A model generated the notes under the pieces. The model did not search any database. It saw nothing but the letters and a program-made list of their open reading frames with translations, and was not told the DNA's origin. DNA of 64,000 nucleotides from an uncultured Bacteroidales bacterium. Its GTDB lineage: Bacteria; Bacteroidota; Bacteroidia; Bacteroidales; CAYVNP01. The translations under genes were made by a program, and so were the position numbers. Shown here piece after piece: positions 8,901 to 54,953 of this stretch. The stretch spans positions 24,420 through 88,419 of the forward strand of contig CAYVNP010000010.1 of assembly GCA_964452905.1 (NCBI GenBank), in the 5' to 3' direction. Positions within the stretch are counted from its first letter, which is position 1, and each line of letters starts with the position of its first letter.

Positions 8901-10528
8901 CCATTTGAATATTGTTTGATAGTTGTGTTGTTTATATTTGTAACACCCATGTTGATCACATAATCATATCCATTCCATCCGGTAGATGAATTTCTGTCAG
9001 CATCAATATAAAGGAGCATCCAATTAGGATCGAAATAATTGGTTAATTTATCAGCTGTTTTTGCATAAAAATAAAGATTAGAGGCATCACGTGCTACACG
9101 GCTTTCAATAATATCATTCCGTCCGGTTTTGTTGACATATCTAAGCAACGTTTCATCACAAACATAATCCCTTTGTTTGATATCGCCTAATACATCTCTG
9201 AATAAAGGGGAGAGGGAATACCATTCATCAAAAGAACCGTCAATTTTAATAGTTGAAGCAGGTGAAACCGCTTGTGGTGGCTGCATCCCTTTGAAACGTC
9301 TGATATAATCACACACCTGATAATAATAGTTGTCAGTAAAATACCCTTTGATTGGACCCATATCCCTGTTAAATTCAATATTAAATCCGTCAATCATCCA
9401 ACGGTCTGTTGCAGGATTCAAATTTCGTCCATAAAAATAATATGTATTTGCATCGCCTGATGTACAACGCCAAGCACCGGCTCCGTATTCATTCCATTGT
9501 GAAAATGTCAGAAAGCGGGGGGATTGTCCTTGTGCTTCCAGTTCGGTGAGCCGTTTGAATTGTTCTTTTAAAAATTCCCCTTTGCCTGTTTCAGTAGGAC
9601 TATACCAAAGATCGTTTAACGTTGGCATATATTTATCAGCCCATCTTCCGCTGGAACCAATAGGAGGGGTGCGTCCTTCACCTTTGGGACGAAAGGCACC
9701 ACCATATGCTTTCATCAGGACAAGTTGTTCAAATCCACCACTAAAATCTTTACCCTGTTTCTGAGGGTAACCCGTCATGAAATTCCATTTTCCGTTTCCA
9801 TCCTGATCAGCCCACATGTAGCGCCAATTGAAATAATTCAGGATTTCGGAGTCGGTGATAACATCGGAAGGTCCAAGGAAAAGGGGCTTCCCTTGATAAA
9901 AAAACCATGCATCCTTGTATTTGCCTGCTTTATATATATTGGTATATAAGTCGGTAATTTGTTGTTTGTCGAGGTTAAGAGCATTATCATGTTTTTGAGT
10001 CCACATCACCAGCTTGGGTGAAGGGAATCCGATTTTTTGCAAATCGCAAATTTCACGCATGGTTATTTCAAGTGCTTCCCATGGAACAATGTCATTGGTC
10101 AGATCAATGAAAATAAAATCAACACCGGCATTTCCAAGCATGATGAGTTGTTTGCGCTCATACCATGAGTCAGATGAATTAATATAACCATCTTCGGGTT
10201 CGGTCATAAAATAATTAACTACTGTTTTGCTTGGATCCAGTGCATTCCACTCCAGATTAATATGATCTTTTTCCAGCACTTCCATAACGCTTCTGGATTT
10301 TGTTATACCTTTATTATGCTGAAAATATCCATGAGTCAACGTGTAATACATCCCAACATATTTGTCATTTTTCGATTTGCCGGTAATAGAAAAATCAGGT
10401 AGTATGCGTCCCGCACCGTCGGTACATACCCAGTTGTCGCCAAAAGCAAATGTTTGTGGTGTTGTCTGTGCCTGAGAAAAGATAAATGCAGATATGAACA
10501 GAGAAATTAATATTAACTTTTTTTTCAT
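5966..10528 (-). CDS. T9SS-secreted multidomain putative glycoside hydrolase (paralog 2): SP, catalytic module, beta-sandwich, CBM6, PA14, Fn3, Ig-Ig, PA14-like, Ig, T9SS CTD
   Basis: - The ORF is 1520 aa.
- Catalytic motifs are GNAGVDFIFIDLTND, FSQWNEYGAGAW and FNIEFNRDMGPIKGYFTDNYYYQ.
- The CBM6 stretch is IPGVIEAEDFDMGGNMVAYYD...DEWTEYTVNI...GTHLLRLYID.
- The PA14 stretch is GLLAEYFDQGNF...YTFYATYDDQCRLWVNN.
- The Fn3 stretch is VKLEWTDNSSQETKFIIERK.
- The CTD is IYPNPAKEQLYV...GMYFITL. Confidence 0.7.
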   Translation of the reverse strand: MKKKLILISLFISAFIFSQAQTTPQTFAFGDNWVCTDGAGRILPDFSITGKSKNDKYVGMYYTLTHGYFQHNKGITKSRSVMEVLEKDHINLEWNALDPSKTVVNYFMTEPEDGYINSSDSWYERKQLIMLGNAGVDFIFIDLTNDIVPWEALEITMREICDLQKIGFPSPKLVMWTQKHDNALNLDKQQITDLYTNIYKAGKYKDAWFFYQGKPLFLGPSDVITDSEILNYFNWRYMWADQDGNGKWNFMTGYPQKQGKDFSGGFEQLVLMKAYGGAFRPKGEGRTPPIGSSGRWADKYMPTLNDLWYSPTETGKGEFLKEQFKRLTELEAQGQSPRFLTFSQWNEYGAGAWRCTSGDANTYYFYGRNLNPATDRWMIDGFNIEFNRDMGPIKGYFTDNYYYQVCDYIRRFKGMQPPQAVSPASTIKIDGSFDEWYSLSPLFRDVLGDIKQRDYVCDETLLRYVNKTGRNDIIESRVARDASNLYFYAKTADKLTNYFDPNWMLLYIDADRNSSTGWNGYDYVINMGVTNINNTTIKQYSNGTWKQIGTASYALNGNEIEISVAKNLLGLNNANPQFYFKWIDNQQKLNDIIDVLSNGDAAPDRRFSYYYNSLQNNTITQRPNKTLTIPGVIEAEDFDMGGNMVAYYDADASNNGNQYRTSEGVDIEVCSTGGYDIGWTNNDEWTEYTVNIASAGTYTVDVNISSPTGNGIFHLELDGVNITGNLNIPNTGGTQNWQNVSAKVQLAEGTHLLRLYIDQSSGANFNKMTFTKSTGLMYGNGDGLLAEYFDQGNFQSLILTRVDNVVLLANSWNGTVPGQGDEDWTVRWTGQVQALTTETYTFYATYDDQCRLWVNNTLLIDDWSGGAAREKSGTIALEAGKRYDIKIEFGEGFAYSQMRLDWSTATISKALVPQTQLYSTILPALGTPANLVAFANSDGTVKLEWTDNSSQETKFIIERKDGTGSFVQVGTVDYNINSFMDITVSNSTAAVWRVKAINAGNSSGYSNEARICMANPISITPIDTVHSNSAPFPVTAISDLGLPLTLSIVSGTATINGTLVTLTGFTGNVTIKAYNAGNINTCQGEAYETFTIKHICSPQTISGFTKIPNRSAEDLTPITLSAVNSSGQPVIYSIVSGNATISGNTLSIDGTQDTITVKAYNPGSNAYCPSNELMQSFIVTIPSSTTCNGSDGYSTYEIWKNIQGTEISTIPLTIKADSMAKVYKLEVLQSTPNRDYYGVRVKGYLCVPYTGDYIFYTCGDDQVEFWLSTSLTNPKDNKQKIAYNYIYTPLYSWNNTASQKSSPVQLKAGEKYYFEVLMKEGPGGDYFAIRWQGPFGLDEVIPGKYLNAGCSAQSITMPGLTSIPANDSVITLNAASTSGLPVTYKVSSGPAYVVGNVLHLKASTGRFTLICSQSGDDTFCPAPDVVKAIMITPAGIEEYELSKLIDIYPNPAKEQLYVNSHKLSVKEIRISDLQGRIVRSFSVSHSPFDFLDISGLTDGMYFITLSTEQHLITKKFIINR

Positions 10529-10541
10529 ATTTATATTGATT

Positions 10542-13500
10542 TTATTGTTTTACAATTTTTTTTCTAACAGTTCCAATGGAGGTGGTCAGGTGAACAAAAT
10601 AGATGCCGTTGTCAATAGATGAAATATCAACTGTTTTCGTATGGTCGAACGGTGTTTCATCAATCAATACTGGTCTTCCGGAAATATCATACATTGTCAG
10701 GCATTTGATTTTAAATCCATTGTCTGAAATGGAGTTCTTAATAATAATATAGTCATTCGCCGGATTAGGAAATATATCAATATTTTCATTCAGGAATAAT
10801 TCATCTATCGAGTTTGTTTTTGAAAGAACGAACAATTGTGATTTATCAATAGCTTTACAAACAAGATCATTTCCTGGTTGAGAAGCTTTTACAACGACAC
10901 GACCGTTTGATAAAAGAATGATTGTATCACCGGATATTGTGGCAGGTCCGGATGTAACTTTAAAGTTCAGCGGAAGGCCTGACGTTGAAGATGCCTTCAT
11001 CAGGAATTTATTACTTCCTACAGGAGTGGTAGTTGAGGCAAAGTTGATGGTCTGCTGCTTGCATGGAAGATTTAAGAATGTACCGGGAATAATTTCATCT
11101 ATTCCGTAAACCGTCTGCCATTTGACTTCCAGATGATCACCGCCGGGACCTTCTTTCATCAGCGCTTCGATGTAATATTTTTTTCCTGCTTCCAGATGAA
11201 TAGGTGCAGATTTCTGTTCAGGATACTGATCCCAAACATATTGATTCACCCAGCCAGGCACCCGTGCAATTTGTTGTTTGTTCGCTTTATTGGTGTCAGT
11301 GCTCAGCCACAATGCGCTTTCGTCATCGCTTGAAATATAAAAAATATAATCAGCCGTGTAGGGTGCACAGATGATTCCTCTTACGCGTGCACCATAGTAA
11401 TCGGCTGCATTTGCAGGTATCTCAAATTTAGTCAGATATCTGATCGAAGTGGGTGTAGAGTCCAAAGGAATACTGCTGATACCCATACCCTGAATATTAT
11501 CCCATCGTTCCATCATGATTTGCCCATCGGTGGAGGTACATTGATGCTGAGGTAAATTGATAATTATCACAAGTGATGTGTCTTTTACCGGGCAGTTCAG
11601 TGAGTCACCTACCTGTTCGGCTAAAAATTTAATTGTACCAACCATATTTTGCAATGTAATCGTATTGCCGTTGATGGATGCTGGTCCTGAACGTATGTCA
11701 AGCACTACAGGCAGTCCGGCATTTGTATGGGAGTTGATTGGAAAGGGAGGATCCGTAGCTGTTTTTGTTGGTATCGGATCATAGGTGATTGTCTGTGTGT
11801 TGCAGTCGTGTATGATTGTAAATGAACGCTGAGTACTGTCCGGACACGTAGTTGCATTTCCGTTTTGGTAAGCTTTCACAGTTACATTACCAATATATTT
11901 TGTTATTCTTAATGTGTCTCCTTTAACAATGGCCGGTCCGTTCAATATCAAAAATGAAACAGGCAGCGTGGCATCACTAATTGCATTGAGTTTTGTCTTG
12001 GATACTGTTGATTTGATATTCGGGATTGAATCAAATGTGATATGCTGTGGGGTACAGGTATCAAGCAATGAAAAAGTAAGTTTATTGATAAACAGACCTT
12101 CATCTGCCTGATCAATAAACAAGCGGATCACCTGTTGTCCTGCAGGCAATATCATTTTTCGGGTGATGGTTGTCCATATATCTTTCCCTCCGGTATTGCC
12201 AATCAACAGATCGGATGTTTTGGGTATACCGTTAACTAATACATGCATTTTGTTTGCATCCTTTGAAGCTGATATCCGAAGATCCATTTTGTATATACCC
12301 GGATTGGGAACATTGACAGTATACTCCAACCATTCGCCTGTTGTAATATTGCTGATACAAAAACCACCTTCCGAGCAGGTGCTGATATCAACACCGGTCT
12401 GCCTGTAAGCCCCGCCTGTATTGGTATTAAAGGCATCATGATAAGCTAACCCTTCACATCCGGTATCAAAGTCTTCTGCTTCAACAGTACCGGGTAATGA
12501 TATATTTTTAAAAGCAGCACGAGGAGTTTCACAAAGACTGATTAATCCCCATGCATCCAGATTAAAGCTGCCTTCAAAAACGATTTTGATAAAATGTTTA
12601 CCGGCTGTCAGATGAATTTTTTTGGTGTTAAACGTAAAGGGCTGATAACTGCCGCCGGTAGAGGTGATCAGAAGTTTTCCTGTTTTATCTGTTCCGTCTG
12701 CCTCTATATGAAAGGCACCGTTGTTATCATTGGAAGATGCATACAAAACGGGTGTATAATCACCTTCAGAAGAAGCATAAACACTATAGGTAAGCCATTC
12801 ACCGGATGAAGTGTGTCCGATCGACATCCCTTTATTATCCGGTAAATAATCCATATCCACAGCGTTGTTGCGGTAATTATAAGCCCATCCGATATGTTCG
12901 GGTGTATTATCATGAAAAGCTTTTTCGGCACCTCCGTTATTATAGTTTTCTGCTTCGATGATTCCCGGAATATTCCACGGCACTCCTCCAAAGGCAGCAG
13001 AATCCTGTTGTTCGGAGAACCTGTAGTTTAATCGTGTTTGCGGCGCCACTTCACCGTTTATCCAAAAGTCCATAGCATTGGGATTTGCAGACAAGCAGTT
13101 GTCGCACCATTTAAAGTCAAAGGCAAGCATAGTCTGGTTTTCACCGAAGACGATTCTGGGTAATGCCATTTCAAGTTGATTGCCGGTTGCTCTGAGGAAA
13201 CCGTTGGCAATATGACTCCAGTTTCCGTTATCGTAAGTGTCAATAGTACAACTGTCACCTATTCTCGAATAATTTATGCGCAGATCATATCCTTCCCAAC
13301 CGGTATTTTTCCTTCGGTCAGCATCCACGAAAAGCACCATCCATTGAGTTCCGGATGAAGGGGAAAGTGTTACATTTGTCTTGACATAGAAGAAAACATT
13401 GGATGCATTGTATGTAACACGTGATTCAATGATGTCATTCCGTGCGGTAGTATTTTTGTAATGCAGAGTATCTTTAGTGCCTTCAATGAAAGTAGGATTA

Positions 13501-30491: not shown

Positions 30492-33400
30492 ATGAATATA
30501 TTAACATGTGCTGTACGAAGAACAAATAAATTTATTTGTTTGACTTTTTTATTATTTTTTAATCCATTAATATACGCTCAATCTCCAATTGCTTATTGGA
30601 AACTGGATGAGAGTATTGGTACTGTTGCTTCAGACAGTTCGGGTAGAGGAAATAACGGAACATTATCCGGTTGTACGTGGCTGCCGGGAGGTGGTAAAAT
30701 CAACGGTACTCTTCAGTTCAATGGCAGTTCAAATTATGTTCAGTGTGGTACCTCCGTTGGTTCATCTTCAGCGCTTACTGTTTCATTTTGGTTGAAAGCC
30801 GATGCACTGAAATATCAGATTCCCATTGATAAACTTCCGGGCAGTGGGAAGGCAGGTTGGAGCATAAAACTCAGGAACAATGGTGATATATGGATTCGCA
30901 TCGGCAGTGAAGGGACACATGATGACCTTGTGTTAACAGGCGTTTATCAGGCAAACACATGGGTGCAAGTTGCTTTTACTTTTTTGTCAGGGAAAGTGAT
31001 AGCGTTTATTAATGGGAATATTGCAGGATCATTAATTACATCCTATCTTGTTAGTAATACAACTACTCAATTACGACTTGGAAATCCTTCCGCAGTAAAT
31101 ACAAATAACGAAGCTTATGGCGGATTGCTTGATGATGTTCAGATTTATGATCGCTCCCTTGGTTTTGAAGAAATCATGGCTATGAACGGAATTACGATTT
31201 CGTCCAAAGAGACTGGTGATCTGGTGATGTGGTACGACAAACCAGCGGGTGCAGAATTTACTTCCGCTCTTCCCATTGGTAATGGACGATTGGGAGGAAT
31301 GATCTATGGTAATGTTGAACAGGAAAAAATTGGTTTAAATGAAAGCACTGTGTGGAGTGGGAGTCCGGGGAATAACAATAAAACAGGTGCTTCAGGTTAT
31401 CTTGCCGATATCAGAAATAAAATATTTTTAGGTAATGCCAGTGGCGCCTGTAATGCAGCAAACAGTTTTATCGGTGGTGGTGAAGCAGCATTCATGCCTG
31501 TTGGTAATTTGAATCTGAATTTTACAGGTCACTCGGCTGCCAATTATTATCGTGAACTTAATTTGAAAACGGCTACTGCTAAAACAACGTATACATTCAA
31601 TGGTGTTAACTATACCCGTGAATATTTTGCCAGTTATCCTGATCAATCCATTGTCGTTCGTCTTACTGCTGATCAACCCGGGAAAATTTCTTTTGTTGCT
31701 TCTCTGGATTGCCCCCATGGTAATAAAAGCATAGGAGTGGAAGGGAATGATGTTTTAGTATTAAAGGGAACAGCAGGGAGTATTAAATTTCAAACACTTG
31801 TCAAACTTAGTATTAATGGAGGGACGATCAATGCTGATAATTCAACCATTTCGGTAAATGGAGCTAACAGTTAAACGGTCATTCTTGCAATCGGTACCAA
31901 CTTCAATATGTACAATGATGTGTCGGGTGATCAGGATGCACGTGCTGTACAGTATATTTCTAATACAGAGAATAAAACCTACAATCAGATTCTTCAGGAT
32001 CACATTGCATCGTATCAGGAACTATTCAATCGTGTTGACTTGAATCTAGGGAATAAAAACAATTATTCAAATTACACAACCGATATGCGTATTGCCACAT
32101 TTGCATTTTCAGATGATCCGCAATTAGTTCGGCTTTACTATCAGTTTGGCAGATACCTGATGATCTCCTGTTCACGTCTTGGTTCACAACCTGCGAATTT
32201 ACAGGGTGTCTGGAACGATCTGATGAGTCCGCCTTGGGGAAGTAAATACACCACCAATATCAATACCGAAATGAATTATTGGATGACTGAAACAGCTAAT
32301 CTGCCGGAGTGTGCCCTTCCATTGATTGACAAAGTAAAAAATTTGGTACCCCCCGGACAACTTACAGCCAAAGTACATTGGGGTGTTAACAGTGGATGGG
32401 TTGAACACCACAACACAGATTTGTGGAACCGCACGGCGCCTATTGATGGTACGTGGGGGCTCTGGCCTACTGGTGGGGCATGGCTGTCAAAACATCTTTG
32501 GGAACATTATTTGTTTAATCCGGATAAAAATTATTTAATGGATGTGTATCCTGTTCTAAAAGGTGCTGCAGAATTTTTTCTTGCAAGTTTAGTTACTGAA
32601 ACAATGTCGGGTAACAATTATCTGGGTACATGCCCGAGTGCATCACCTGAAAATCTTCCTGCACCATGGCAATGCTTTGTCAGTTTTGCACCCACAATGG
32701 ATATTCAGATCATCCGCGATTTGTTTAACAGTGTCATAGATGCATCAAAAATACTAAATATAGATGTTGATTTACGAACACAAATAAGTGAAGCGTTAAA
32801 AAGTTTACCACCGAATAAAATAGGCCAGTCAGGTCAGTTGCAGGAATGGTTTAATGATTGGGATAATCCGACAGATCAGCATAGACATGTATCACATTTG
32901 TATGGATTGTTTCCGAGTAATCAGATCAGTTTGCGCGGTACGCCTGCCTTGACAAATGCAGCAAAAACAACATTGATACAGCGTGGCGATCTCAGCACCG
33001 GTTGGTCTTTGGCCTGGAAGATCAATCTGTGGGCGCGACTTGAAGATGGGAACCATTCCTATAAATTAATCCAGATGCTGCTTTCGTCTGACCGTACATA
33101 TAAAAATTTATTTGATGCACATCCGCCATTTCAAATCGACGGGAACTTTGGCGCTGTTTCTGGCATTAATGAAATGTTGTTGCAAAGTCAAAACAATGAA
33201 ATTCAATTTCTGCCCGCTCTTCCTGATGTTTGGGTAAATGGTTCATTTAAAGGATTAAGAGCGCGTAAAGGATTTGTAATTGATTCGGTGAGTTGGAACA
33301 ATAAAACTTTAACCAAAGCTACGATTTCTTCCACTCTTGGAGATACATGTCGTGTACGTTCAGGTTCAAATACAAAACAATTTCTTACACTACCCGGTAT

Positions 33401-34175
33401 GACCTATGTATTGGATGCATCCCTGACTATCATTGATCAGTTTAACACTCCAGTCTTAAAACCGGCCAAAACAAATGGGCTCAAAGGAAAATATTACAAT
33501 GGGAAAAATTTTGATTCGCAAATGATGGAACGTATTGATTCGGTCATATCCTTTGATTGGCAGCAAGGTAGCGCAAGTCCTCTGGTTCATATTGATAATG
33601 CCAGCATTCAATGGACAGGATCTATTGAGCCATTATTTTCTGAAACATATACCTTTTATACTTCTTCTGATGATGGTGTCCGATTATGGATCAACAATCA
33701 ATTGATCATTGATAACTGGAAATCACCTTTAAAAGCTGAAGACAGCGGATCTATTATGCTTACTGCAGGAAAAAAATACAATATAAAACTGGAATATTTT
33801 GAAAATATAGGTGCTTCCCATATTACGTTAGCATGGTCTAGTCCAAGTCAACCAAAACAACTAATTCCCGAGTCACAGTTATTTCCTTTGATGCAACCAG
33901 ATACCACTGTTGATATTAAAAACTACACGTATGCAGATAATTTTGATATTGATATGTATCCGAATCCTGCAGGGGATCAGTTATCCATAAACAGTGATCA
34001 AATTTTAATTGATAAAATAATCATTTCGGATATGCAGGGCAGAATTGTTAAAACATATACCTTTCATCCTTCATCATCAGTTTCACTTGATATTAGTGAA
34101 TTAACAAAAGGAGTTTTTTTTGTTGAACTAAATACCCCAAAAAAATGTTTTACCAGAAAATTGGTGAAAATTTAA
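30492..34175 (+). pseudogene. LamG-GH95 alpha-L-fucosidase-PA14-T9SS CTD gene interrupted by one in-frame TAA (31872..31874)
   Basis: - Track ORFs 30492..31874 and 31908..34175 are in the same frame.
- The read-through gives ...ISVNGANS*TVILAIGTNFNMYNDVSGD...
- The first part holds a LamG-like lectin domain (YWKLDESIGTVASDSSGRGNNGTLSG) and the GH95 N-terminal motif WYDKPAGAEFTSALPIGNGRLGGMIYG...LNESTVWSG.
- The second part holds the GH95 catalytic region (LQGVWNDLMSPPWGSKYTTNINTEMNYW), PA14 and the CTD (MYPNPAGDQLSI). Confidence 0.75.
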
Positions 34176-46009: not shown

Positions 46010-46462
46010 TCAGCATCCTTTAAATATCTTATAAATAAAGTAGGCACTCAATAATAAATTGTATGCTGAAAATATAAAATTAATATAACTATAACGTTTT
46101 ATTGGGAAGAACCGTAATAGAAATGTTATGTTTGAGAGCAATAATGCAAAGATCAGTTTGTATGCTTTTGAAAATTCAAATTTCATATCAGGACAAATAA
46201 ATTCTGTTAAATTCATAAAAAGAAATAATAGAAAGAAGATGAATTGAATGACGAATGTTTTTGTCAGGAATGAAACAGATTGCTGTCTTCTTTTTCTTTT
46301 AGCGCTTAAAGTGTGGACTTTTAAAAAAGAAAAAAAAACTATACATAAAGAAAAAATATATATAATATACAATACTACAATGATAATATTATCATCGTAG
46401 TTTATATTAAACATTTGCCCCATTATTGAATCTTGAAGTTGATTGGTATTAGATAATAACAT
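46010..46462 (-). CDS. Small polytopic membrane protein, function unknown
   Basis: This 150-aa ORF has four hydrophobic segments. It starts 7 nt downstream of the stop of the PKD-repeat gene on the same strand. Confidence 0.4.
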   Translation of the reverse strand: MLLSNTNQLQDSIMGQMFNINYDDNIIIVVLYIIYIFSLCIVFFSFLKVHTLSAKRKRRQQSVSFLTKTFVIQFIFFLLFLFMNLTEFICPDMKFEFSKAYKLIFALLLSNITFLLRFFPIKRYSYINFIFSAYNLLLSAYFIYKIFKGC

Positions 46463-46468
46463 TTCGAT

Positions 46469-49354
46469 TTATTTAATAATGATAATTTTTTTAATTAATG
46501 TTTGTTCAGTTGTTTTCATCTGAACATAATACAGTCCATCCGTTAAGAATGTGTTATTGAATTCCATTAAATATATTCCGGGATTCTGATTGGTGTTCGT
46601 AAGGTTTAAAAATTTATTTCCAGTAATATCATAAATGGATATCTCAACATTGGTTGGAGACGAAATGGAATATCTGATATGAGTAAAATCAGAAAAAGGA
46701 TTAGGGTAGCAGGACAATGAATTTCCATGAGAATTTATTTCATTAATGCCGGTAGATAATACTTTAACCGTGTCGCACGTTTTACAGGAGTCGTTAGTAA
46801 TAGGATCAAATATTTTATAACAAACATAGTAATTACCTATTGAGTCATAATAATGTGTTGGTGCTTCTGAATTTGAAGTGCCTGTTCCATCACCAAAGTC
46901 CCATTCACCAGTAGCACCGTCACCATAAGTAGCACCTTTGAAATCTACAGGGAATATTCCTTTATCAAATGATTTATCACCGATAAAATAGGAGAATGCG
47001 TTTCGTAATCCTTTATTTCCATTATTAAGATTAATAATTTGAATATGATCATCTACACAAGTTTGTCCTGAAGTAGATACCCGTAAATGAACTTTATAAT
47101 AACCATTTGCTGAATAAGTATTTGTTGGATTTTGTGAAACGGATGATTTCCCATCACCAAACGTCCATTGCCAATTAGCAATATTACCGTATGACCGATC
47201 AATGAAATTAATTTTTTTATTTATCGAGTCAATCGAATAAATAAAATTCGCTTTGCAATTAGAAGTTACACTGCTATCAATGATGATATTTTTACATATA
47301 TAGTTTTTACATTTATTCTGGGCGTCATAAATATTCAGACACACAGGGAAAATTCTTTTCTTGTTATTGATCATTTTGTGAATGGGGTTTTCATCGACAT
47401 AAGAGGTTGTGTCATCACCAAAGTTCCAAATATACTTGTTAATACTGATCCCTGTCGAGTGATTAAAACAACGTATGGTATTGATCTTCCAGTCAACCTG
47501 ATAATTGAAATCAGCATGACAATCTTTGTTCATGGAACTTACAAGGATTTCTTCAGTATGTTCATCTGTACATTTAGTCGTGTCATTATAAATAGTAAGT
47601 TTTACTTTATAAAATCCGCTTGCTTTGAATTTATACGTTGGATTGCTTTGTAAAGACTGACTGCCATCACCAAACTCCCATCGAGTCGTATTCATTTTGC
47701 CAATACTGGTATTTTTAAAAATAACATTATTTGAAACAGAATCAATATAATAAGTAAACTTAGCTTTGCAAACAGGGAGACTGTCAATTTGAATTTTTTC
47801 ACAATATGAATCTAAAGATTCACCAATAATATCTTTAACAGTCAGGCAAACATTGTATGTGCCGGCCTTTGGAAATGGAACCAAAGGATTGTAAGAGTTT
47901 GAATAATGACCATTACCGAAATCCCAAAATGTTTTTCCTACAGTACCGGTTGATTTATTATTGAATAAAATGAATTTCTTTTTTAAATTAATATAGTAAT
48001 CAAAGTCAGCTTTAAGTGGTTCAATGCCTACTTTAACAAAAGTTGTTTTACGATCAGTGCACCCATCCTGTTTGCGATAAGTGGATAAACTGACGTCATA
48101 TACTCCCGGATTTGAATACGTATGAGTGGGGTTTCTTAGCGTAGATACTGATCCGTCACCAAAAGTCCAGTACCAATTAACACCAATAGCAGAGGATGTA
48201 TTTGTTAATTCAATTGCATTTGCAGTATCATTGGTTTTTACTGAGAATTCAGCATTACAGTTTCTAATACCTACTTGAAAGGGTCTACAATATTGTGTTT
48301 TACAACCATTGGACGTATCATATGCAGTTAAACAGACTTTGTAATAATCATTTCCATCCGAAATATTGAATTTGTGAAGTAAAACATTCTTTTGATTGGA
48401 TTGAAATCCATCACCGAAAGTCCACAACCATAATAAATTATTATTGGATGAAATGGACGAATTATTAATTGTTACAACATTTCCATTTACATTTCCATCA
48501 AAATATAAAATTGTGTTTTGATTTCTACATATTGGCATATATCCTTTTTCAATAATTCCTTCAATATTGAAAAAAGATCCTTCTCGTCCATAACCAGATG
48601 TGATTTTACTGTTTGTTGTATAGTAGGTGACTTTAGGAATAATGAAACGAATGCCATAATTCCCAATTTCATTGGTTAAAACATTAGCAATATCCTTACT
48701 AAACGAGTTAATTGCATTTTGTGAATGATTCTCCGGTATTGTAAAATCAGTGATTGAAGCAATGGAATCATCAAACAGTTTGGATACATCAACATCATCA
48801 AACGGTTGATTATAATTAATCACTTGTTTGACTGTAGGGATTTTACAACGGATTAATGTGTCATTGTCAAGAATTAAATAAAAGTAATCTGTGCTATGAT
48901 AGATTCTTTTTTCAATGGGTCCTTTCACCCACCAGTCAATTCCTTGCTGATCATTCCTAAGTGTGAGGAGCCCAATACTTATTTTAATATCGCTGATTGT
49001 TTTATTGTATTTTTTAAGAGCAGCACTAAATTTTGGAAAACCAACAATATTATCGTATCCGCTTATTAAGACTTTTTGGGAAGTAGGTGGATCAATATTA
49101 CTATAGTCTCTGGAAGCAAGGTAATAATAAGCATATTCACCTGAACTATAACCTCCGTTTAGATAGTTCTGTAGAGTGTGTCCTGATTTTACCGGTTCAA
49201 CAGTATTTCCGGTTGGATTAACAATCCAGGCAACTACACCTGAGTTTAACGATTCATCTCCACCGAATTTAAAGTAGTTTTGAGCTTTGGCAGAGTGAAT
49301 AGAAATTGAATAAAATAATAGAGTGATAAAATAAAGTATATACTTTGTTTTCAT
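46469..49354 (-). CDS. PKD-repeat surface protein with T9SS CTD
   Basis: The 961-aa ORF has signal peptide MKTKYILYFITLLFYSISIHSAKAQ. At least seven PKD-type repeats are present (W-x-FGDG-x-x-S-x-x-x-NP-x-H-x-Y-x-x-x-G-x-Y-x-V-x-L). The CTD is CYPNPFSDFTHI...GLYYVQM. Confidence 0.8.
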   Translation of the reverse strand: MKTKYILYFITLLFYSISIHSAKAQNYFKFGGDESLNSGVVAWIVNPTGNTVEPVKSGHTLQNYLNGGYSSGEYAYYYLASRDYSNIDPPTSQKVLISGYDNIVGFPKFSAALKKYNKTISDIKISIGLLTLRNDQQGIDWWVKGPIEKRIYHSTDYFYLILDNDTLIRCKIPTVKQVINYNQPFDDVDVSKLFDDSIASITDFTIPENHSQNAINSFSKDIANVLTNEIGNYGIRFIIPKVTYYTTNSKITSGYGREGSFFNIEGIIEKGYMPICRNQNTILYFDGNVNGNVVTINNSSISSNNNLLWLWTFGDGFQSNQKNVLLHKFNISDGNDYYKVCLTAYDTSNGCKTQYCRPFQVGIRNCNAEFSVKTNDTANAIELTNTSSAIGVNWYWTFGDGSVSTLRNPTHTYSNPGVYDVSLSTYRKQDGCTDRKTTFVKVGIEPLKADFDYYINLKKKFILFNNKSTGTVGKTFWDFGNGHYSNSYNPLVPFPKAGTYNVCLTVKDIIGESLDSYCEKIQIDSLPVCKAKFTYYIDSVSNNVIFKNTSIGKMNTTRWEFGDGSQSLQSNPTYKFKASGFYKVKLTIYNDTTKCTDEHTEEILVSSMNKDCHADFNYQVDWKINTIRCFNHSTGISINKYIWNFGDDTTSYVDENPIHKMINNKKRIFPVCLNIYDAQNKCKNYICKNIIIDSSVTSNCKANFIYSIDSINKKINFIDRSYGNIANWQWTFGDGKSSVSQNPTNTYSANGYYKVHLRVSTSGQTCVDDHIQIINLNNGNKGLRNAFSYFIGDKSFDKGIFPVDFKGATYGDGATGEWDFGDGTGTSNSEAPTHYYDSIGNYYVCYKIFDPITNDSCKTCDTVKVLSTGINEINSHGNSLSCYPNPFSDFTHIRYSISSPTNVEISIYDITGNKFLNLTNTNQNPGIYLMEFNNTFLTDGLYYVQMKTTEQTLIKKIIIIK

Positions 49355-49542: not shown

Positions 49543-49914
49543 ATGTGGAATACATTTAAGAAAAAAGAAATCAATCTGGATAATTTTAAAGATTTAGTAT
49601 CTATTGCTTCTGCAGATGGACAACTTGACGAAAAAGAAAAAAAATTTTTATTGTCCAAAGCTGAAAAATTAAATCTGCCAAAAGAAGAAGTGGAAAAAAT
49701 TCTATCCACTCAGACTACTTATCATGTCCAGAATTATGAAAATAAAAAGGATAAAGAACAACATCTTGCTGATATTGTTTTTATGGCAATGATTGATGGA
49801 GAACTTAAAAAAGATGAGTATGAGATGTGTGTTCAAATTGCACAGAAAATGGAGTTAACAAAGAATGATGTTGATCGAATTATTGGATTAGTGAAAAAAA
49901 TGTTTACGAAATAA
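49543..49914 (+). CDS. Small TerB-like domain protein
   Basis: This 123-aa ORF has two halves with the TerB-type pattern hydrophobic-A-x-A/I-D-G-x-hydrophobic-x-x-x-E: IASADGQLDEKEKKFL and MAMIDGELKKDEYEMC. It has no signal peptide or TM segment. Confidence 0.6.
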   Translation: MWNTFKKKEINLDNFKDLVSIASADGQLDEKEKKFLLSKAEKLNLPKEEVEKILSTQTTYHVQNYENKKDKEQHLADIVFMAMIDGELKKDEYEMCVQIAQKMELTKNDVDRIIGLVKKMFTK

Positions 49915-49929
49915 TTTTTTATTTAGTAA

Positions 49930-52536
49930 ATGAAACATATCAGCATATTTATATTTTTTTTATTTTATTGTCGGTTGGTTTCGGCACAAATTTATCCTAT
50001 TGAAAATTTCAGTATCAAAGATGGATTACCTCAATCCAATGTTTGGTCTATTTTTCAGGATGATCTTGGTTTTATGTGGTTTGGCACAGAAGCAGGTATA
50101 TGCAGATATGATGGGAAAAAGTTTGTATCTTTTGATACTGCTTCAGGTATCACAAATAATTATATCAAAAATATTATACAGGATAAAAAAGGGAATATAT
50201 GGTTTTCCACTTTTGGAGGTGGTGTTACCAAATATGATTGGAAACATTTTCAGTCTTTTGGAACAAAGGAAGGGTTAACCTTAAATCAGGTTAACTGTAT
50301 GATTGAAGATAATAAACAACCCGGAAGCTTTTGGATTGGTACCGGCGGCGGTGGTTTATGTTTATTTGATGGCAAAAAGGTCATTAAAAAATTCGATACA
50401 TTACATGGGTTACCGGATATTAAAATTACGTGTCTATTACAAACTACAGATGGAAATCTTTGGATTGGTACTGATATAGGAGGGGTATGTAAATTTGATC
50501 GTAAATCAAAATTTGTTGTGTTTAATACGACAAACGGCCTGACGGATAATCGAGTTAAAGCATTATTGGAAGATAAAAATAAAAATGTCTGGATTGGTAC
50601 CAAAGGCGGTTTAATTAAATATAACGGAAATACATTTCAGAATTATACTGTCGAAGATGGTTTACCTCATAATACTGTTCAGACCTTATCATTAGACAGA
50701 AGTAATAATTTATGTATTGGTACCAATTATGGAATAAGTATTTTCAACGGGCAAAGATTTTATAATTTAACTTCTAAAAACGGATTGTCTGCAGATTATA
50801 TTCTTTCCATCTACCATGATAAACAGGATGTGATGTGGTTAGGAACTTTTGGAAAGGGTGTAGATAAATATACGAGTAAACGATTTCAAATTTTCAGTAC
50901 AACGGATGGTTTGGCTTTTGATGTGGTACATTCAATTACTCAGGACACCAAAGGGAATATGTGGTTCGGCACTGAAAACGGGATTAGTTGTTATGATGGG
51001 AAAGAATTCAAAAATTATAATGTCAAAGATGGTCTTGGTTCTCCGGTTGTAATGACATCCTTTACGGACAAACAGGGGAATGTATGGTTTGGTACTTTTT
51101 TCGGAAAGGGAGGAGCTATAAAATGGGATGGAAAAAAATTTAAAAATTATACGACCGAAGATGGATTGTATAATTTTATTTGGTCCATTTATCAAGACAG
51201 GGACAATAACATGTGGTTTGGTACATATCCCCGTGGTGTTTGTAAATGGGATGAAAAAAAATATACATGGTTCACATCAAAAGAAAATTTATGTGGGGAT
51301 ATAATTACGGCCATATTTCAGGATAAAGCAGGGAACATGTGGTTTGGTAGTTATGGTTCAGGTATTAGTAAATATGATGGGAAAAAGTTTGTAAATTATA
51401 ATTCAAAGAATGGGTTATCGTCAGATAATATTTTTGGGATTTTACAGGATAATGATGATAACATCTGGATTGCAACGGATGGCGGTATTAATATTTTTAA
51501 CGGAAAAAAGTTTCAAACAATTTCAGAAAAAGATGGTTTGCATTCCAATACGATCTGGATCATGATGCATGATAATTCCGGAAATATATGGATTGGACAT
51601 CAAAAAGGAATAGAAAAAATTAATGTTAAAACACGAAAGAGTACTTTCTTCGGATATATGGAAGGATTTACCCCAATTGAAGTGAATGCAGGCGGAGGGT
51701 TTAAAGATAAAGATGGTAATTTATGGTTTGGAACATTTAAAGGGGCTGTCAAGTATTCTCCAAAAGAAGATAAACAGAATCCATTTATGCCCATCACGCA
51801 TATTACTGCTATCAATCTGTTTAACCGAGAAGTTTCGGATTGGAAAACATATGCAGATTCGTTTAATTTTAAAACTAATTTACCGATAAATCTTGTTTTA
51901 CCGTATGATCAGAATTTTATTACGTTTAATTATATTGGTATTCATTCTGAAGCACCTTTGAAGGTGAAATATCAATATAAGTTAAAAGGGTTTGATAAAG
52001 ACTGGCAACCCTTGACCGAAGAAACGGATGCTACGTATTCAAATTTACCTCCGGGTGAATATACTTTCTTACTGAAAGCTTTAAGTGGAACGGGAGTTTG
52101 GAATGTTAAACCAGAAGAATATACATTCAGGATTGATTCGCCCTTTTGGGAGAAATGGTGGTTTTATGTCAGTGAAATCTTGTTTTTTGTTTTTATGTTT
52201 ACCAGTTCAATATATTTAAGCCGCAGAGGTGGAAATGAAAAATTGGCTACTCCTCTTTTATTTACTTCTATGCTTGTGGTTACCGAGTTTCTATCTATGA
52301 ATCTTGAAAATTATTTACAGAACTACACCGGCGGTATACCCATTGTTAAATTATTTCTTAATGTTATCCTTGCAGTATCCTTAAGCCCAATGGAAAGACT
52401 TGCTGACAGGTTGATTAAAACCAGAAAATTCAAAGAACAACTCGATACAATTAAAACTGATTTTGAAGATATTAATTTGGGTGAAATTAAGTTGGATGAT
52501 TCAATTGAACTAGATTCTGACGATAATAAAAAATAA
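49930..52536 (+). CDS. Periplasmic two-component-regulator-propeller (Reg_prop repeats plus Y_Y_Y domain) protein with a C-terminal 3-TM anchor and no kinase or response-regulator output
   Basis: - The ORF is 868 aa and has a signal peptide.
- It has at least 12 repeats of the G-L-x-x-N-x-V-x-x-I-x-x-D-x-x-G-N-hydrophobic-W-hydrophobic-G-T type.
- The Y_Y_Y motif is YQYKLKGFDKDWQPL...YSNLPPGEYTFLLKA.
- Three hydrophobic helices follow, then a short acidic tail.
- It starts 15 nt after the preceding TerB-like gene. Confidence 0.75.
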   Translation: MKHISIFIFFLFYCRLVSAQIYPIENFSIKDGLPQSNVWSIFQDDLGFMWFGTEAGICRYDGKKFVSFDTASGITNNYIKNIIQDKKGNIWFSTFGGGVTKYDWKHFQSFGTKEGLTLNQVNCMIEDNKQPGSFWIGTGGGGLCLFDGKKVIKKFDTLHGLPDIKITCLLQTTDGNLWIGTDIGGVCKFDRKSKFVVFNTTNGLTDNRVKALLEDKNKNVWIGTKGGLIKYNGNTFQNYTVEDGLPHNTVQTLSLDRSNNLCIGTNYGISIFNGQRFYNLTSKNGLSADYILSIYHDKQDVMWLGTFGKGVDKYTSKRFQIFSTTDGLAFDVVHSITQDTKGNMWFGTENGISCYDGKEFKNYNVKDGLGSPVVMTSFTDKQGNVWFGTFFGKGGAIKWDGKKFKNYTTEDGLYNFIWSIYQDRDNNMWFGTYPRGVCKWDEKKYTWFTSKENLCGDIITAIFQDKAGNMWFGSYGSGISKYDGKKFVNYNSKNGLSSDNIFGILQDNDDNIWIATDGGINIFNGKKFQTISEKDGLHSNTIWIMMHDNSGNIWIGHQKGIEKINVKTRKSTFFGYMEGFTPIEVNAGGGFKDKDGNLWFGTFKGAVKYSPKEDKQNPFMPITHITAINLFNREVSDWKTYADSFNFKTNLPINLVLPYDQNFITFNYIGIHSEAPLKVKYQYKLKGFDKDWQPLTEETDATYSNLPPGEYTFLLKALSGTGVWNVKPEEYTFRIDSPFWEKWWFYVSEILFFVFMFTSSIYLSRRGGNEKLATPLLFTSMLVVTEFLSMNLENYLQNYTGGIPIVKLFLNVILAVSLSPMERLADRLIKTRKFKEQLDTIKTDFEDINLGEIKLDDSIELDSDDNKK

Positions 52537-52651
52537 AAATATTAAAAAGTTATGTTTTTTTAAATTAATTTTGTTGTAATTAAAAAAAACAATTAAATTT
52601 GTGTATTCATAACGAAAAAATAGTCAGTATAAACTAATAAAATTTAAAATC

Positions 52652-53044
52652 ATGGCAGTATTTAATTACAAACAGACAATCTATGCAGGCATGATCGCTA
52701 TTGCCGGAGCTAATGGTGAAATCAATAGAAGAGAAGAAAGTAAAGTGAATGAAATCTTTAATCATAATTTCGATATGTCAAGAAGTGATCGCAAAGAAGT
52801 GATGAGATTATGGGAACAGAATAAGGCCAATTTTACCAGTATGATTATTGCAGAATTAAAGATTCATTCTTGGAATGATCAACGTGAAGCCTTTAAAAGT
52901 ATTTACCATTTTATTCTGGAACGTCGCAAAGAGTATAATCTCAGCGGTAAATCAAGAGCCAAAGGTGTAGATGAAGATTTGAAAGAATTAAATCTGTATG
53001 AAGAAACTGCTGAAACGATTAAAAAAGAACTTGGACTTGCATAA
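52652..53044 (+). CDS. Small hypothetical protein with a weak TerB-like motif
   Basis: This 130-aa ORF is predicted to be soluble. IAIAGANGEINRREESKVNEIF resembles the TerB half-motif. A strong terminator follows it. Confidence 0.4.
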   Translation: MAVFNYKQTIYAGMIAIAGANGEINRREESKVNEIFNHNFDMSRSDRKEVMRLWEQNKANFTSMIIAELKIHSWNDQREAFKSIYHFILERRKEYNLSGKSRAKGVDEDLKELNLYEETAETIKKELGLA

Positions 53045-53070
53045 AATTTAAAATTATTTATTTTATTTTA

Positions 53071-53104
53071 AACCATTCTTATCTAATATAAGAATGGTTT
53101 TTTT
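53071..53104 (+). terminator. Intrinsic terminator
   Basis: The sequence is AACCATTCTTAT-ctaat-ATAAGAATGGTT followed by TTTTTTT. It is a perfect 12-bp stem, 27 nt after the stop at 53044. Confidence 0.75.
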
Positions 53105-53138
53105 ATTTATATTTGAATTTATTCTGAAATAAAAAAAT

Positions 53139-54953
53139 ATGTTGAGAAAAAATAATCTTTTCCTGTTCGTTTTTCTGACTATTCTTATTAATAATTCTTT
53201 TACTCAGATTAATTTCTTGACAGGAAACAAAAAAGAAATCTATCATCAGTTTGCTGAAGATATTAAAAACAATACCAATATTCCCATTCAGATTTTTATT
53301 TCTCAGGGTAGTGTTGATAATCTTAATCGTTTGCTATCCGATTCTTTTCATCTTGCATTTGTTCAATATGATGTATTGCTTTATAAAGAAATAGAAAACA
53401 GTGATATTAAAAAATATATTAAATTGTTTCTTCCTTTGTATAATGAAGAGATTCATCTTGTTGCGTTAAATAACAGTAAGATCAACTCATTAAAAGATTT
53501 ATCAGGTAAACGAGTAGGCGTAGGAGCGATTAATTCAGGAACAAATATTACAGCAGACCTGATTAAATTAAAAACAGAGATTAAATGGATCAATTATAAT
53601 CTTCCTCTTGATCAATCCTTTGCTGTTTTGCTAAAGGACAGTATCGATGCGTTTTTTGTGGTAGGAGCTGCTCCTGTAAATATTTTGAAATCGCTTTCAG
53701 AACGTGCTAAAAATATTATAAAACTTATTCCGATTCAGGATGATAAATTAAAGAAAATTTATAAACACAGAACTATTGAATCAGGTACCTATCCCTGGCT
53801 GAAACATGATATTTACACTTATTCCACTGCCACACTTTTAATATTGAACAGTAAAAACATAAATGATTCTTTAGCGAAAAAAATTGAACAACTTTATTAT
53901 GATTTAAAAGGTAATTTAAAAGGGATTCAAAATAATAAATTTTCTCACCCTAAATGGCATCAGGTTGATTTTGGAAATCATGAAGGAATTGACTGGCCAA
54001 TTTACAAACAAGAATATGTGACAGCGGAAATCATATTTGATTGGCTTGCATATATAGCATTGTTGTTAACTTGTTTTCAGATTTATTTTGTTTTAAATAA
54101 GCTTTGGAAAAGAAAACATGAACGGATCGTAGCTGAAAGTATTTCTGTTTCTGCAATGTTTATCAGCATCCTTATCAATTGTTTTTTTGCATTTAAAAAT
54201 TTAGTGAATAATGGGATGCCACAGTTTTCAGCAAATGTATTATGGATTGTTTGTAGTTTGCTAAGTGCAATTATTGGCATTGGTTTCTGGGTGATTGGCA
54301 GCAGAGAGAAAAATTTTTTCAGACTATTGAAACAATCTTTAAAACTTGAAAAACATGAAGCTGCTGATCTGGCTAAATCTTTTTTTCGACCCTCCGCTTC
54401 GGATAATATCATCGAAATACTTGGTCGAATAGCCATGATTGATAATGAATTTGCTAAAGAAGAACAAAAATTTATTCAGTCATTTGCCGATGAATGGAAC
54501 ATCAAATTGGATTGGGGGTTTATTCAGACAAATTTCTTAAATAAGAATAATGAAGGTTTTGTCAAGTTGCGCGACTGCATGAAAAAATATCTATTACTAT
54601 CGCCACCCAAAGAGCAGGTTTCTCATCTTGCCGATGTTATTATGGAATTAATCAATGCCGATAAAAATGTTGCAAAAGAAGAAGCACTTATTCAACAGGA
54701 ATTGATTGGCCAAATTAACAATTATCTTGGGAAGAAAGATGTCGATATGTTTATTGCTGTTGTTATACCTCCTGATGTGCATAAAGAAGTTTCTATGCAG
54801 GATTTATTAAATGATCTAAAAAAAGAAAATTTTGGAGGTGGAAACGTATATATTTCCGAGCCATATTATTCCTATCAATTAGCGAATGTAGTGTGTGAAA
54901 AGTTTCGTGATGAAGGAATGATTGCCCTTGTTACGTTTGCTGAAAACACATAA
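53139..54953 (+). CDS. TAXI-type periplasmic solute-binding domain fused to a 3-4 TM segment and a cytoplasmic TerB-like domain
   Basis: - The ORF is 604 aa and has a signal peptide.
- The N-terminal half matches, from memory, the TAXI/NMT1_3 pattern: SQGSVDNLNRLLSDSFHLAFVQYDV, LYNEEIHLVALNNSKINSLKDLSGKRVGVGAINSGT, and IDAFFVVGAAPV.
- Hydrophobic helices are IIFDWLAYIALLLTCFQIYFVL, AMFISILINCFFAF and VLWIVCSLLSAIIGIGFWVI.
- The C-terminal TerB-like halves are IAMIDNEFAKEEQKFI and LINADKNVAKEEALI. Confidence 0.6.
   Translation: MLRKNNLFLFVFLTILINNSFTQINFLTGNKKEIYHQFAEDIKNNTNIPIQIFISQGSVDNLNRLLSDSFHLAFVQYDVLLYKEIENSDIKKYIKLFLPLYNEEIHLVALNNSKINSLKDLSGKRVGVGAINSGTNITADLIKLKTEIKWINYNLPLDQSFAVLLKDSIDAFFVVGAAPVNILKSLSERAKNIIKLIPIQDDKLKKIYKHRTIESGTYPWLKHDIYTYSTATLLILNSKNINDSLAKKIEQLYYDLKGNLKGIQNNKFSHPKWHQVDFGNHEGIDWPIYKQEYVTAEIIFDWLAYIALLLTCFQIYFVLNKLWKRKHERIVAESISVSAMFISILINCFFAFKNLVNNGMPQFSANVLWIVCSLLSAIIGIGFWVIGSREKNFFRLLKQSLKLEKHEAADLAKSFFRPSASDNIIEILGRIAMIDNEFAKEEQKFIQSFADEWNIKLDWGFIQTNFLNKNNEGFVKLRDCMKKYLLLSPPKEQVSHLADVIMELINADKNVAKEEALIQQELIGQINNYLGKKDVDMFIAVVIPPDVHKEVSMQDLLNDLKKENFGGGNVYISEPYYSYQLANVVCEKFRDEGMIALVTFAENT

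Follow-up and report, generated by a model that had tools for sequence, protein, structure and literature searches.

We analysed a window of 64,000 nt from an uncultured Bacteroidales bacterium (contig CAYVNP010000010.1 of assembly GCA_964452905.1, positions 24,420 to 88,419 of the forward strand), in which four co-directional genes, here called P1 to P4, occupy positions 49543 to 54953. The fourth gene, P4, encodes a periplasmic TAXI domain fused to three transmembrane (TM) helices, which are followed by a TerB-like helical domain and an alpha/beta domain of ferredoxin-like type. The last three of these elements make up the C-terminal 315 residues and constitute the conserved unit of the protein, which is referred to below as the core. 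The explanation that best accounts for the results as a whole, which we favour with slightly less than even confidence, is that P4 is a kinase-free, ligand-responsive and non-enzymatic membrane transducer, that the four-gene block consists of three units and that P3-P4 is the evolutionarily meaningful part of it. Each domain by itself is known, and public databases already contain the proteins under partial names; no description of the family combining three TM helices with TerB and alpha/beta domains, of its fusion to TAXI, or of any link between TAXI and TerB was found in the literature.

The domains were called by profile searches with Pfam and NCBIfam, where the gathering cut-off of Pfam TerB (PF05099) is 24.4 bits. 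The gene structures, the domain content, the distribution of the families and the conservation or lack of conservation of synteny are all reported here with high confidence. The four genes and the domains of P4 are located as follows.

49543 to 49914, + strand: P1, an open reading frame (ORF) of 123 aa encoding a soluble TerB protein
49930 to 52536, + strand: P2, an ORF of 868 aa encoding an inner-membrane Reg_prop/Y_Y_Y protein
52652 to 53044, + strand: P3, an ORF of 130 aa encoding an all-helical protein with one degenerate TerB motif
53139 to 54953, + strand: P4, an ORF of 604 aa encoding the TAXI/3-TM/TerB-like/alpha-beta fusion
53208 to 54008, + strand: periplasmic TAXI domain of P4, residues ~24-290 (NMT1_3, 86 bits; TIGR02122, 92 bits against a cut-off of 84.35)
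54009 to 54299, + strand: 3-TM block of P4, residues ~291-387, from hydropathy, with the motif Y...NK.W.R.H...V..S.S and with TM3 ending in G.W
54315 to 54725, + strand: TerB-like helical domain of P4, residues ~393-529, with the motifs AMIDNEFAKEE and INADKNVAKEE
54750 to 54938, + strand: C-terminal ferredoxin-like alpha/beta domain of P4, residues ~538-600, with the motif VPQ...GG..Y...S..YA....YR, from an AlphaFold2 (AF2) model

A signal peptide precedes the TAXI domain in P4, and the topology of the protein is such that the signal peptide and the TAXI domain are outside and the basic loop is inside. About 90 full-length homologs of P4 (593-650 aa, 44-69% identity) were found in metagenome-assembled genomes of Bacteroidota, including those of Saprospiraceae, Prolixibacteraceae, Bacteroidales and Draconibacterium. 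A preliminary description of the block, made from the letters of the DNA, had named as a possible objection that P2 and P4 could be truncated pseudogenes of ordinary hybrid kinases or transport receptors. Such an origin is ruled out by the conserved full-length architectures, that is by the ~90 homologs of P4 and by the retention of P2-type endings in relatives. The same description left unmentioned the C-terminal alpha/beta domain of P4, which comprises ~65 residues. In one locus the TAXI and core parts appeared to be split between two genes (L112:5076-6939; 279 aa and 312 aa, P0316), and this turned out to be one fused gene with a single frameshift, as the tblastn segments, which are in frames 2 and 3, lie end to end; P0316 is a frameshift artefact, and the locus provides no Rosetta-stone evidence.

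The closest solved relatives of the TAXI domain of P4 are TtGluBP (1US4) and VcGluP (8S4J), with E values of ~3e-9. The motifs GS..N, Q.D, LY.E..H and SGT are invariant across the fused clade and align with the motifs that bear the ligand contacts S75, Q93, E125 and G156 in VcGluP, and the TAXI domain of P4 looks functional by sequence. P4 resembles the TAXI-TRAP and TAXI-GltS systems (TtGluBP 1US4/1US5, VcGluP 8S4J and Bordetella BP0403-GltS) in having a bona fide TAXI domain with ligand-contact motifs, and the TAXI-GltS fusions of Lachnospiraceae in having this domain covalently fused to a membrane protein. However, the partner in P4 is neither a DctQM-type TRAP permease nor GltS, but the 3-TM block with ~215 cytoplasmic residues, and whereas the solute-binding proteins of TAXI-TRAP systems are soluble or lipid-anchored, that of P4 is fused to three TM helices and cytoplasmic domains. 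No TRAP permease was found in the window or listed in the seven relatives' loci for which gene tables were inspected (L013-L019), and neither GltS nor any other transporter matched P4 or its TM segment at E<=10. The non-TRAP TAXI systems known so far are limited to TAXI-GltS (PMC12344293), and TAXI proteins are only now turning up outside the classical TRAP systems. The public label of the ~90 fusion proteins, 'TAXI family TRAP transporter solute-binding subunit', is misleading given that half of each protein is something else and that a TRAP permease is lacking nearby.

A separate observation concerns a stand-alone TAXI protein of 341-344 aa, which in L014 (positions 9996-12324) and also in L015-L018, all Saprospiraceae-like, is encoded just downstream of the fusion gene, beside a K+ channel gene (Ion_trans_2 and TrkA_N). 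A TAXI protein beside a K+ channel recalls the GluR0-type ligand-gated channels, here encoded in trans.

An exhaustive HMMER search with the core showed it to be widespread, with 349 clusters reaching E<=1e-3 and 160 passing the stricter limit of E<=1e-30. The members are nearly all stand-alone proteins of 307-335 aa, and most of them are without an extracytoplasmic domain. Named members belong to filamentous cyanobacteria (Moorena, Okeania, Dapis and Symploca), Cytophagales and other Bacteroidota, their annotations read just 'TerB family tellurite resistance protein' or 'hypothetical', no NCBIfam model covers the family, and it has no relative of solved structure. Two proteins from high-GC organisms, P0086 (338 aa) and P0087 (366 aa), likewise consist of the core without a TAXI domain. 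Other extracytoplasmic add-ons at the N-terminus of the core are an IPT/TIG domain (P0123) and a lipoprotein domain (P0122), and in P0215 (845 aa) and P0236 (812 aa) the TerB and alpha/beta part is located at the C-terminus of proteins without TM helices. Given that the core also occurs stand-alone, with other add-ons or, as regards its cytoplasmic part, on soluble proteins, the TAXI fusion is one Bacteroidota clade's elaboration of the core, and the same distribution suggests that TerB plus alpha/beta may be a portable regulatory module. The N-terminal ~600 residues of P0215 and P0236 had no Pfam match and contain HD-like motifs (H..H...HD).

The window copy of P4 scored 16.7-20.9 bits for Pfam TerB, which is under the cut-off, and in a profile search against the sequences of the PDB the only match obtained was TerB 2JXU (E 0.4). 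Among core members, 28/38 matched Pfam TerB at E<=0.01 (best 2.2e-7) and no other family recurred. For this reason the TerB-like assignment of the core holds at the level of the family, as far as can be judged from sequence comparison. The domain assignments of the preliminary description were confirmed for TerB in P1, for Reg_prop/Y_Y_Y in P2 and for TAXI in P4, whereas TerB in P3 lies at the threshold and TerB in P4 is sub-threshold with support across its family. Its statement that both large proteins are without classical outputs also stood, as no kinase, receiver (REC), cyclase or helix-turn-helix (HTH)/DNA-binding domain was detected in P2 or P4 by the profile searches.

The residues that are near-invariant throughout the core family are found in four places. 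One spans TM1's end, the loop and TM2's start (Y..NK.W.R.H...V..S.S), another closes TM3 (G.W), a third consists of the TerB region's two acidic motifs, and the fourth belongs to the last domain (VPQ...GG...S..YA....YR). In the membrane part, the invariant positions are at the cytoplasmic face, which across the family is better conserved than any other part of P4, TerB included, and the periplasmic halves of the helices are variable. In the alignment of the fusion proteins (A1) the TM block, FQIYF..NKLWKRKHE..VAESISISAMFISI.IN, was the best conserved segment, above the TerB region, and the polar residues E, S, S and N are found in the conserved TM block of this TAXI-fused subfamily. A PQ-loop/SemiSWEET identity of the 3-TM block was considered, given that the motif FQIYF..NKLWKRKHE...SIS looked alike, and was rejected, since there was no Pfam PQ-loop match at E<=10 and the Gln is invariant in the TAXI-fused clade only and variable in the wider core family.

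An AF2 model of the core (mean predicted local distance difference test score, pLDDT, of 79) contained three long TM helices (H2-35, H40-67 and H71-98), the helical domain and the alpha/beta domain, the latter with a pLDDT above 90 and the order beta-alpha-beta-beta-alpha-beta. When the model was compared with the structures of the PDB using Foldseek, nothing was found at E<=1e-3, and the C-terminal domain had no Pfam match. Weak Foldseek matches of this domain were to Lrp/AsnC RAM domains (E 0.025-0.04, probability ~0.9); the beta-alpha-beta-beta-alpha-beta unit, modelled with high confidence, shows a weak likeness in structure to the ferredoxin-like ligand-binding domains of Lrp/AsnC RAM and ACT type, to which there is no sequence likeness, and the VPQ, GG, S..YA and YR motifs are specific to the P4 family.

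The TerB domain is widespread and is found in ter clusters, in DjlA and YebE, and in the Bunzi and Shango defence systems. The TerB domains (PF05099) of ter, DjlA, DUF533/YebE and BnzA of Bunzi resemble P4 in being all-helical and in having acidic A.(A/I)D(G/N)....E motifs in pairs, and in DjlA, YebE and BnzA, as in P4, TM helices keep TerB at the membrane's cytoplasmic face. In contrast to the ter, DjlA and Bunzi systems, P4 is without a ter operon, a J domain or defence partners, and has an alpha/beta domain of its own and a distinctive 3-TM block. With its TerB-like domain hard-wired to a small TM block, the core family offers a compact and testable model for the action of TerB at the membrane.

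P3 is 78% identical to a homolog in L013 and 43% identical to those in L105/L107, all of which are encoded upstream of a gene of the core family. L105/L107 represent a marine Bacteroidota lineage, in which the homolog is 130 aa long and is located ~400 nt upstream of a stand-alone core gene (P0096) whose product is <55% identical to the window core. A P3-type gene directly upstream of a core-family gene is accordingly found in the window, in L013 and in L105/L107, and is a recurrent, non-universal upstream neighbour of the core gene. In L014-18 and L112, a second type of small TerB gene (Pfam TerB 21-26 bits) was located at a distance of 1.3-2.6 kb from the fusion gene. Altogether, a small TerB-like neighbour was present in 5/14 core lineages (lineages defined at 70% identity) compared with 1/82 control loci carrying Y_Y_Y sensors, a comparison that is biased in favour of the core loci because the P3-type and second-type profiles were built from these loci themselves. 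It is plausible from this gene context that the small TerB proteins are functionally linked to the core in a non-obligate manner. Of the earlier proposal, this plausible link is what survives: small TerB genes recur near the core family, and P2-type proteins elsewhere are without TerB.

The P3 protein scored 24.6 bits for Pfam TerB, where the N-terminal half alone was matched (profile positions 4-63), it carries the degenerate TerB motif AGANGEINRRE, and its homolog in L105 scored 23.9 bits. A single-sequence AF2 model of P3 consisted of six helices (pLDDT 88.7), which gave no match to PDB structures at E<0.9, the best TM-score being ~0.53, to 2H5N. That P3 is a close paralog of the core TerB domain or of the second small-TerB type was ruled out (hhalign probabilities 2% and 0.5%, respectively), and the likeness is in both cases at the level of motifs only. 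Neither the core nor P3 had a match in plasmid records.

If P4 is a transducer, the TAXI domain would bind a carboxylate or amino-acid-like ligand in the periplasm and its closure would be relayed through the 3-TM bundle, which is probably oligomeric, so that the signal would reach the conserved site at the cytoplasmic face and the TerB/alpha-beta module. This module would then act non-enzymatically, through its binding of a partner protein, a small molecule or an ion, and P3 would be a candidate soluble partner of it. We arrive at the transducer reading because variable outside domains are placed on a constant core, which is receptor-like, because the conservation is interfacial rather than trans-membrane and because the soluble module is portable. 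The class of ligand, the oligomerisation, the direction in which information flows and the part played by P3, taken jointly, are put forward as a possibility that is held only tentatively. A wider claim, in which the core would be a new class of bacterial membrane device with the TerB-like domain as cytoplasmic transducer or gate, coupled to TAXI in Bacteroidota and with P3-like proteins as dedicated soluble partners, we consider rather doubtful. If true, it would place a third type of TAXI-dependent system alongside TRAP and GltS, which would be a ligand-gated conduit or else a receptor without a kinase, and would provide the first defined mechanistic role for TerB.

Several observations weigh against the transducer reading and the units on which it builds. 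The assignment of P3 to TerB is marginal (Pfam at the cut-off, hhalign to the core 2% and no significant fold match), no small TerB gene was found nearby in 9/14 core lineages, so that P3 cannot be an obligate partner, and the bias of the control comparison mentioned above applies to the remaining five. The AF2 model of the core is of a monomer and has a predicted template-modelling score (pTM) of 0.57. With respect to the gene units, the contig of L013 ends inside P2, so that any P1 homolog would lie beyond the contig, and no RNA runs containing the locus were found, only freshwater DNA metagenomes. Finally, the characterised TAXI proteins all serve transport, through TRAP-QM or GltS and including natural TAXI-GltS fusions (PMC12344293, PMC11574862).

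The last point leads to the strongest alternative, which we nevertheless judge unlikely, namely that P4 is a new channel or secondary transporter that depends on a binding protein, where TAXI delivers its ligand to an oligomeric 3-TM pore or carrier. TerB and alpha/beta would then gate or regulate like RCK, CBS or MscS-type domains, and the stand-alone core would be a conduit without a binding protein. Such a function would agree with the high conservation of the TM block in the TAXI-fused subfamily and its polar E, S, S and N, with the lack of an enzymatic or DNA-binding output in P4, and with the lack of a universal partner gene of the core, from which a self-sufficient function would be expected. 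However, there are only three TM helices per chain, and the invariant residues are found at the cytoplasmic interface, with variable periplasmic helix halves, rather than through the membrane. Furthermore, no sequence or fold likeness to a known transporter or channel was found, the likeness to PQ-loop/SemiSWEET proteins having failed, and the soluble TerB plus alpha/beta part is also present on non-membrane proteins.

That the core is a membrane-homeostasis or stress protein without signalling, in the sense of TerB/TerC, DjlA and YebE (ion-, metal- or lipid-interfacial), appears quite unlikely. The TAXI, TIG and lipoprotein add-ons would in that case only tether or localise the protein, and the TerB genes nearby would encode paralogous stress proteins and be kept together by shared regulation. 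TerB is reported to be membrane-associated and a partner of the membrane protein TerC (bioRxiv 10.1101/2022.05.11.491447; PMC11003894), the interfacial NK.W.R.H motif at the cytoplasmic face is invariant, basic and aromatic, most core members are without an extracytoplasmic domain, and P1 shows a weak likeness to the TerB part of DjlA (NCBIfam NF006948, E 4e-8, 33 bits, far under the cut-off of 162). A mere tether is, however, difficult to combine with ligand-contact motifs that are invariant across the fused clade, which points to a working site. In addition, no TerC, TerD, TerZ or TerA domains were found in the scanned neighbours, the large window ORFs or the gene tables of relatives, and a stress-regulon context was seen in no locus.

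The preliminary description regarded the four genes as one transmembrane sensing or stress module, with two sensors signalling through TerB as effector or adaptor. The layout on which it was based was reproduced, since the coordinates of the four ORFs, the gap of 15 nt between P1 and P2, the terminator hairpin and the motif scan all agreed with it. The TerB motif (A-x-A/I-D-G/N-x-hydrophobic-x-x-x-E) was found three times in its strict and five times in its relaxed form among the 191 window ORFs of >=50 aa, the relaxed form occurring twice in P1, once in P3, twice in P4 and in none of the other 188 ORFs. With the same TerB profiles, one TerB-type small ORF was found in 1.02 Mb of unrelated control loci. 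Given that rate of about one per Mb, the presence of three TerB-bearing genes within 5.4 kb is not chance. Only 1/82 of the control loci had any TerB-type ORF within 10 kb, and this ORF (L024:12160-12615, - strand, 151 aa) is located ~3 kb from a Y_Y_Y protein of 2155 aa.

The arrangement of the block is not conserved. No relatives of P1, P2 or P3 were found near P4 homologs in 12 genomic loci (up to 10 kb on each side), and 11 further fusion-bearing lineages are without P1-, P2- and P3-type genes, two of them carrying a different small TerB gene. There is no gene that universally neighbours the P4 homologs. The nearest relative, L013, alone keeps the order P2-P3-P4, with 68% identity in P4 and 78% in P3, and the NDH-2 gene that follows P4 in the window is found there too, at the same place. 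P2-type genes in other loci have unrelated neighbours (in L022 a coiled-coil lipoprotein gene upstream and porV-porU downstream, in L076 divergent genes, and in L021 genes for a glyoxalase and an AraC regulator), and no TerB, P3 or P4 neighbours were found in L020, L021, L022 and L076. The following signals were found between the genes.

52594 to 52601, + strand: TAAATTTG, a Bacteroidota-type -7 box 51 nt 5' of the start codon of P3, from a pattern scan and suggestive
about 53070 to 53100, + strand: an intrinsic-terminator-like hairpin between P3 and P4 (13-bp stem, 5-nt loop and T run)
53108 to 53115, + strand: TATATTTG, a Bacteroidota-type -7 box 24 nt 5' of the start codon of P4, from a pattern scan and suggestive

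The boxes were scanned for with the -7 promoter consensus of Bacteroidota, TAnnTTTG. Because of the terminator after P3 and the TAnnTTTG boxes before P3 and P4, it is probable that the block contains three transcription units, P1-P2, P3 and P4. The claim of one conserved unit was therefore not sustained; the four-gene block is a juxtaposition of separate units, and the four-gene 'module' should not be propagated as a system. A single module of all four genes is very unlikely, in spite of the co-directional arrangement within 5.4 kb of three genes that bear TerB and two periplasmic binding proteins that lack an output, the short spacing of P1 and P2, the order kept in L013 and the rarity of TerB-type ORFs elsewhere, since synteny is kept only at 68-78% protein identity, the P2-type proteins elsewhere have other neighbours, terminator and promoter-like boxes divide the block and P2 and P4 have unrelated TM modules (hhalign probability 0.3%, which rules out their homology).

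P1 scored 35.1 bits for Pfam TerB in two matched stretches, with the motifs ASADGQLDEKE and AMIDGELKKDE, and is distantly related to the second small-TerB type found near fusion genes in other loci (hidden Markov model E 0.002). A DjlA co-chaperone was rejected as an identity for P1, since the match covers the TerB part only and there is no J domain in the block. Domain-level matches of P1 in PADLOC were to PDC-S48 (E 1.7e-8) and BnzA (E 0.002); a phage-defence system of the Bunzi or Shango type was rejected, as there were no such matches for P2 or P4 and no helicase or ATPase partners. P1 and P2 are probably a lineage-specific, co-transcribed pair, a tie that is suggested only by the spacing of 15 nt.

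The P2 protein consists of a signal peptide, a double beta-propeller (Pfam Reg_prop in 12 stretches, 205 bits), a Y_Y_Y domain, a conserved 3-TM module and an acidic tail of ~46 residues. Two of these parts are located as follows.

51955 to 52134, + strand: Y_Y_Y domain of P2, residues 676-735 (Pfam PF07495, 57.5 bits)
52150 to 52395, + strand: 3-TM module of P2, residues ~741-822, from hydropathy, with the motif PFWEKWWFY...TEF...YTGGIP...NV..A...P.E

The middle TM helix is under the hydropathy threshold and was deduced from conservation in relatives; the invariant positions of the module correspond to W150-E232 of alignment A3. The C-terminal module of P2 is kept in six loci (L013, L020/L022, L021, L035 and L076), with two relatives of full length (861 and 897 aa), and the short P2-type ending is found at the same place in L013, L020/L022, L021 and L076. 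The module forms a small family by itself and is rare, being present in 6/80 metagenomic loci retrieved by its conserved peptides, and a search with the C-terminal 228 residues gave two matches, both of which were fragments at contig ends.

P2 shares with the hybrid two-component system (HTCS) sensors of Bacteroidota the periplasmic Reg_prop double propeller, Y_Y_Y and a membrane anchor, but is without HisKA, HATPase_c, REC and AraC-type HTH domains and ends ~46 residues after the 3-TM module. The membrane-spanning one-component regulator BguR (bioRxiv 10.64898/2026.01.10.698779) is likewise without phosphorelay domains; P2 differs from it in that no DNA-binding domain was detected in its C-terminal segment of 133 residues. 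P2 can be regarded as an HTCS-like periplasmic protein that probably binds glycans and carries an orphan 3-TM module, and this conserved module is its sole possible 'output'. An identity with PorZ, a protein of the T9SS (type IX secretion system), was rejected (NF052228, 63 bits against a cut-off of 260), as P2 has no Por_Secre_tail and has TM helices instead.

A number of minor observations were made around P1 and P2. The GC skew over positions 50001-52000 of the window was +0.29 compared with ~0 to 0.1 elsewhere, which coincides with the Gly/Trp-rich propeller repeats of P2. Many T9SS cargo genes (Por_Secre_tail) are located at positions 2120-43310, and their domains include CBM6/CBM35, PA14, GLEYA, GH43, GH95, a GH63/MGH1-like hydrolase and an M14 peptidase; the scanned ORFs of this region did not include a SusC/SusD pair. 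P2 lies ~6 kb downstream of the cargo region, for which it could act as a glycan sensor, and the P1-P2 pair adjoins a T9SS cargo gene with PKD repeats (46469-49354). The closest full-length relative of P2 (L020:1236-5928 and L022:6349-11041) is convergent with porV and a gene for a PorU-like Peptidase_C25 protein of 1133 aa; this proximity of P2-type and T9SS genes comes from a single lineage and may be coincidence.

Within the cargo region, two adjacent ORFs on the + strand (30492-31874 and 31908-34175) are separated by 33 nt, the first encoding Laminin_G_3 and a GH65N_2-type N-terminal domain and the second the catalytic and C-terminal domains of GH95 together with PA14 and a T9SS tail. The pair may represent a single glycosidase gene interrupted by a stop codon or frameshift, or a genuine two-gene arrangement. 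Between the gene with PKD repeats and a D-Ala-D-Ala ligase-like gene, the - strand at positions 46010-46462 encodes a hydrophobic protein of 150 aa without a Pfam match.

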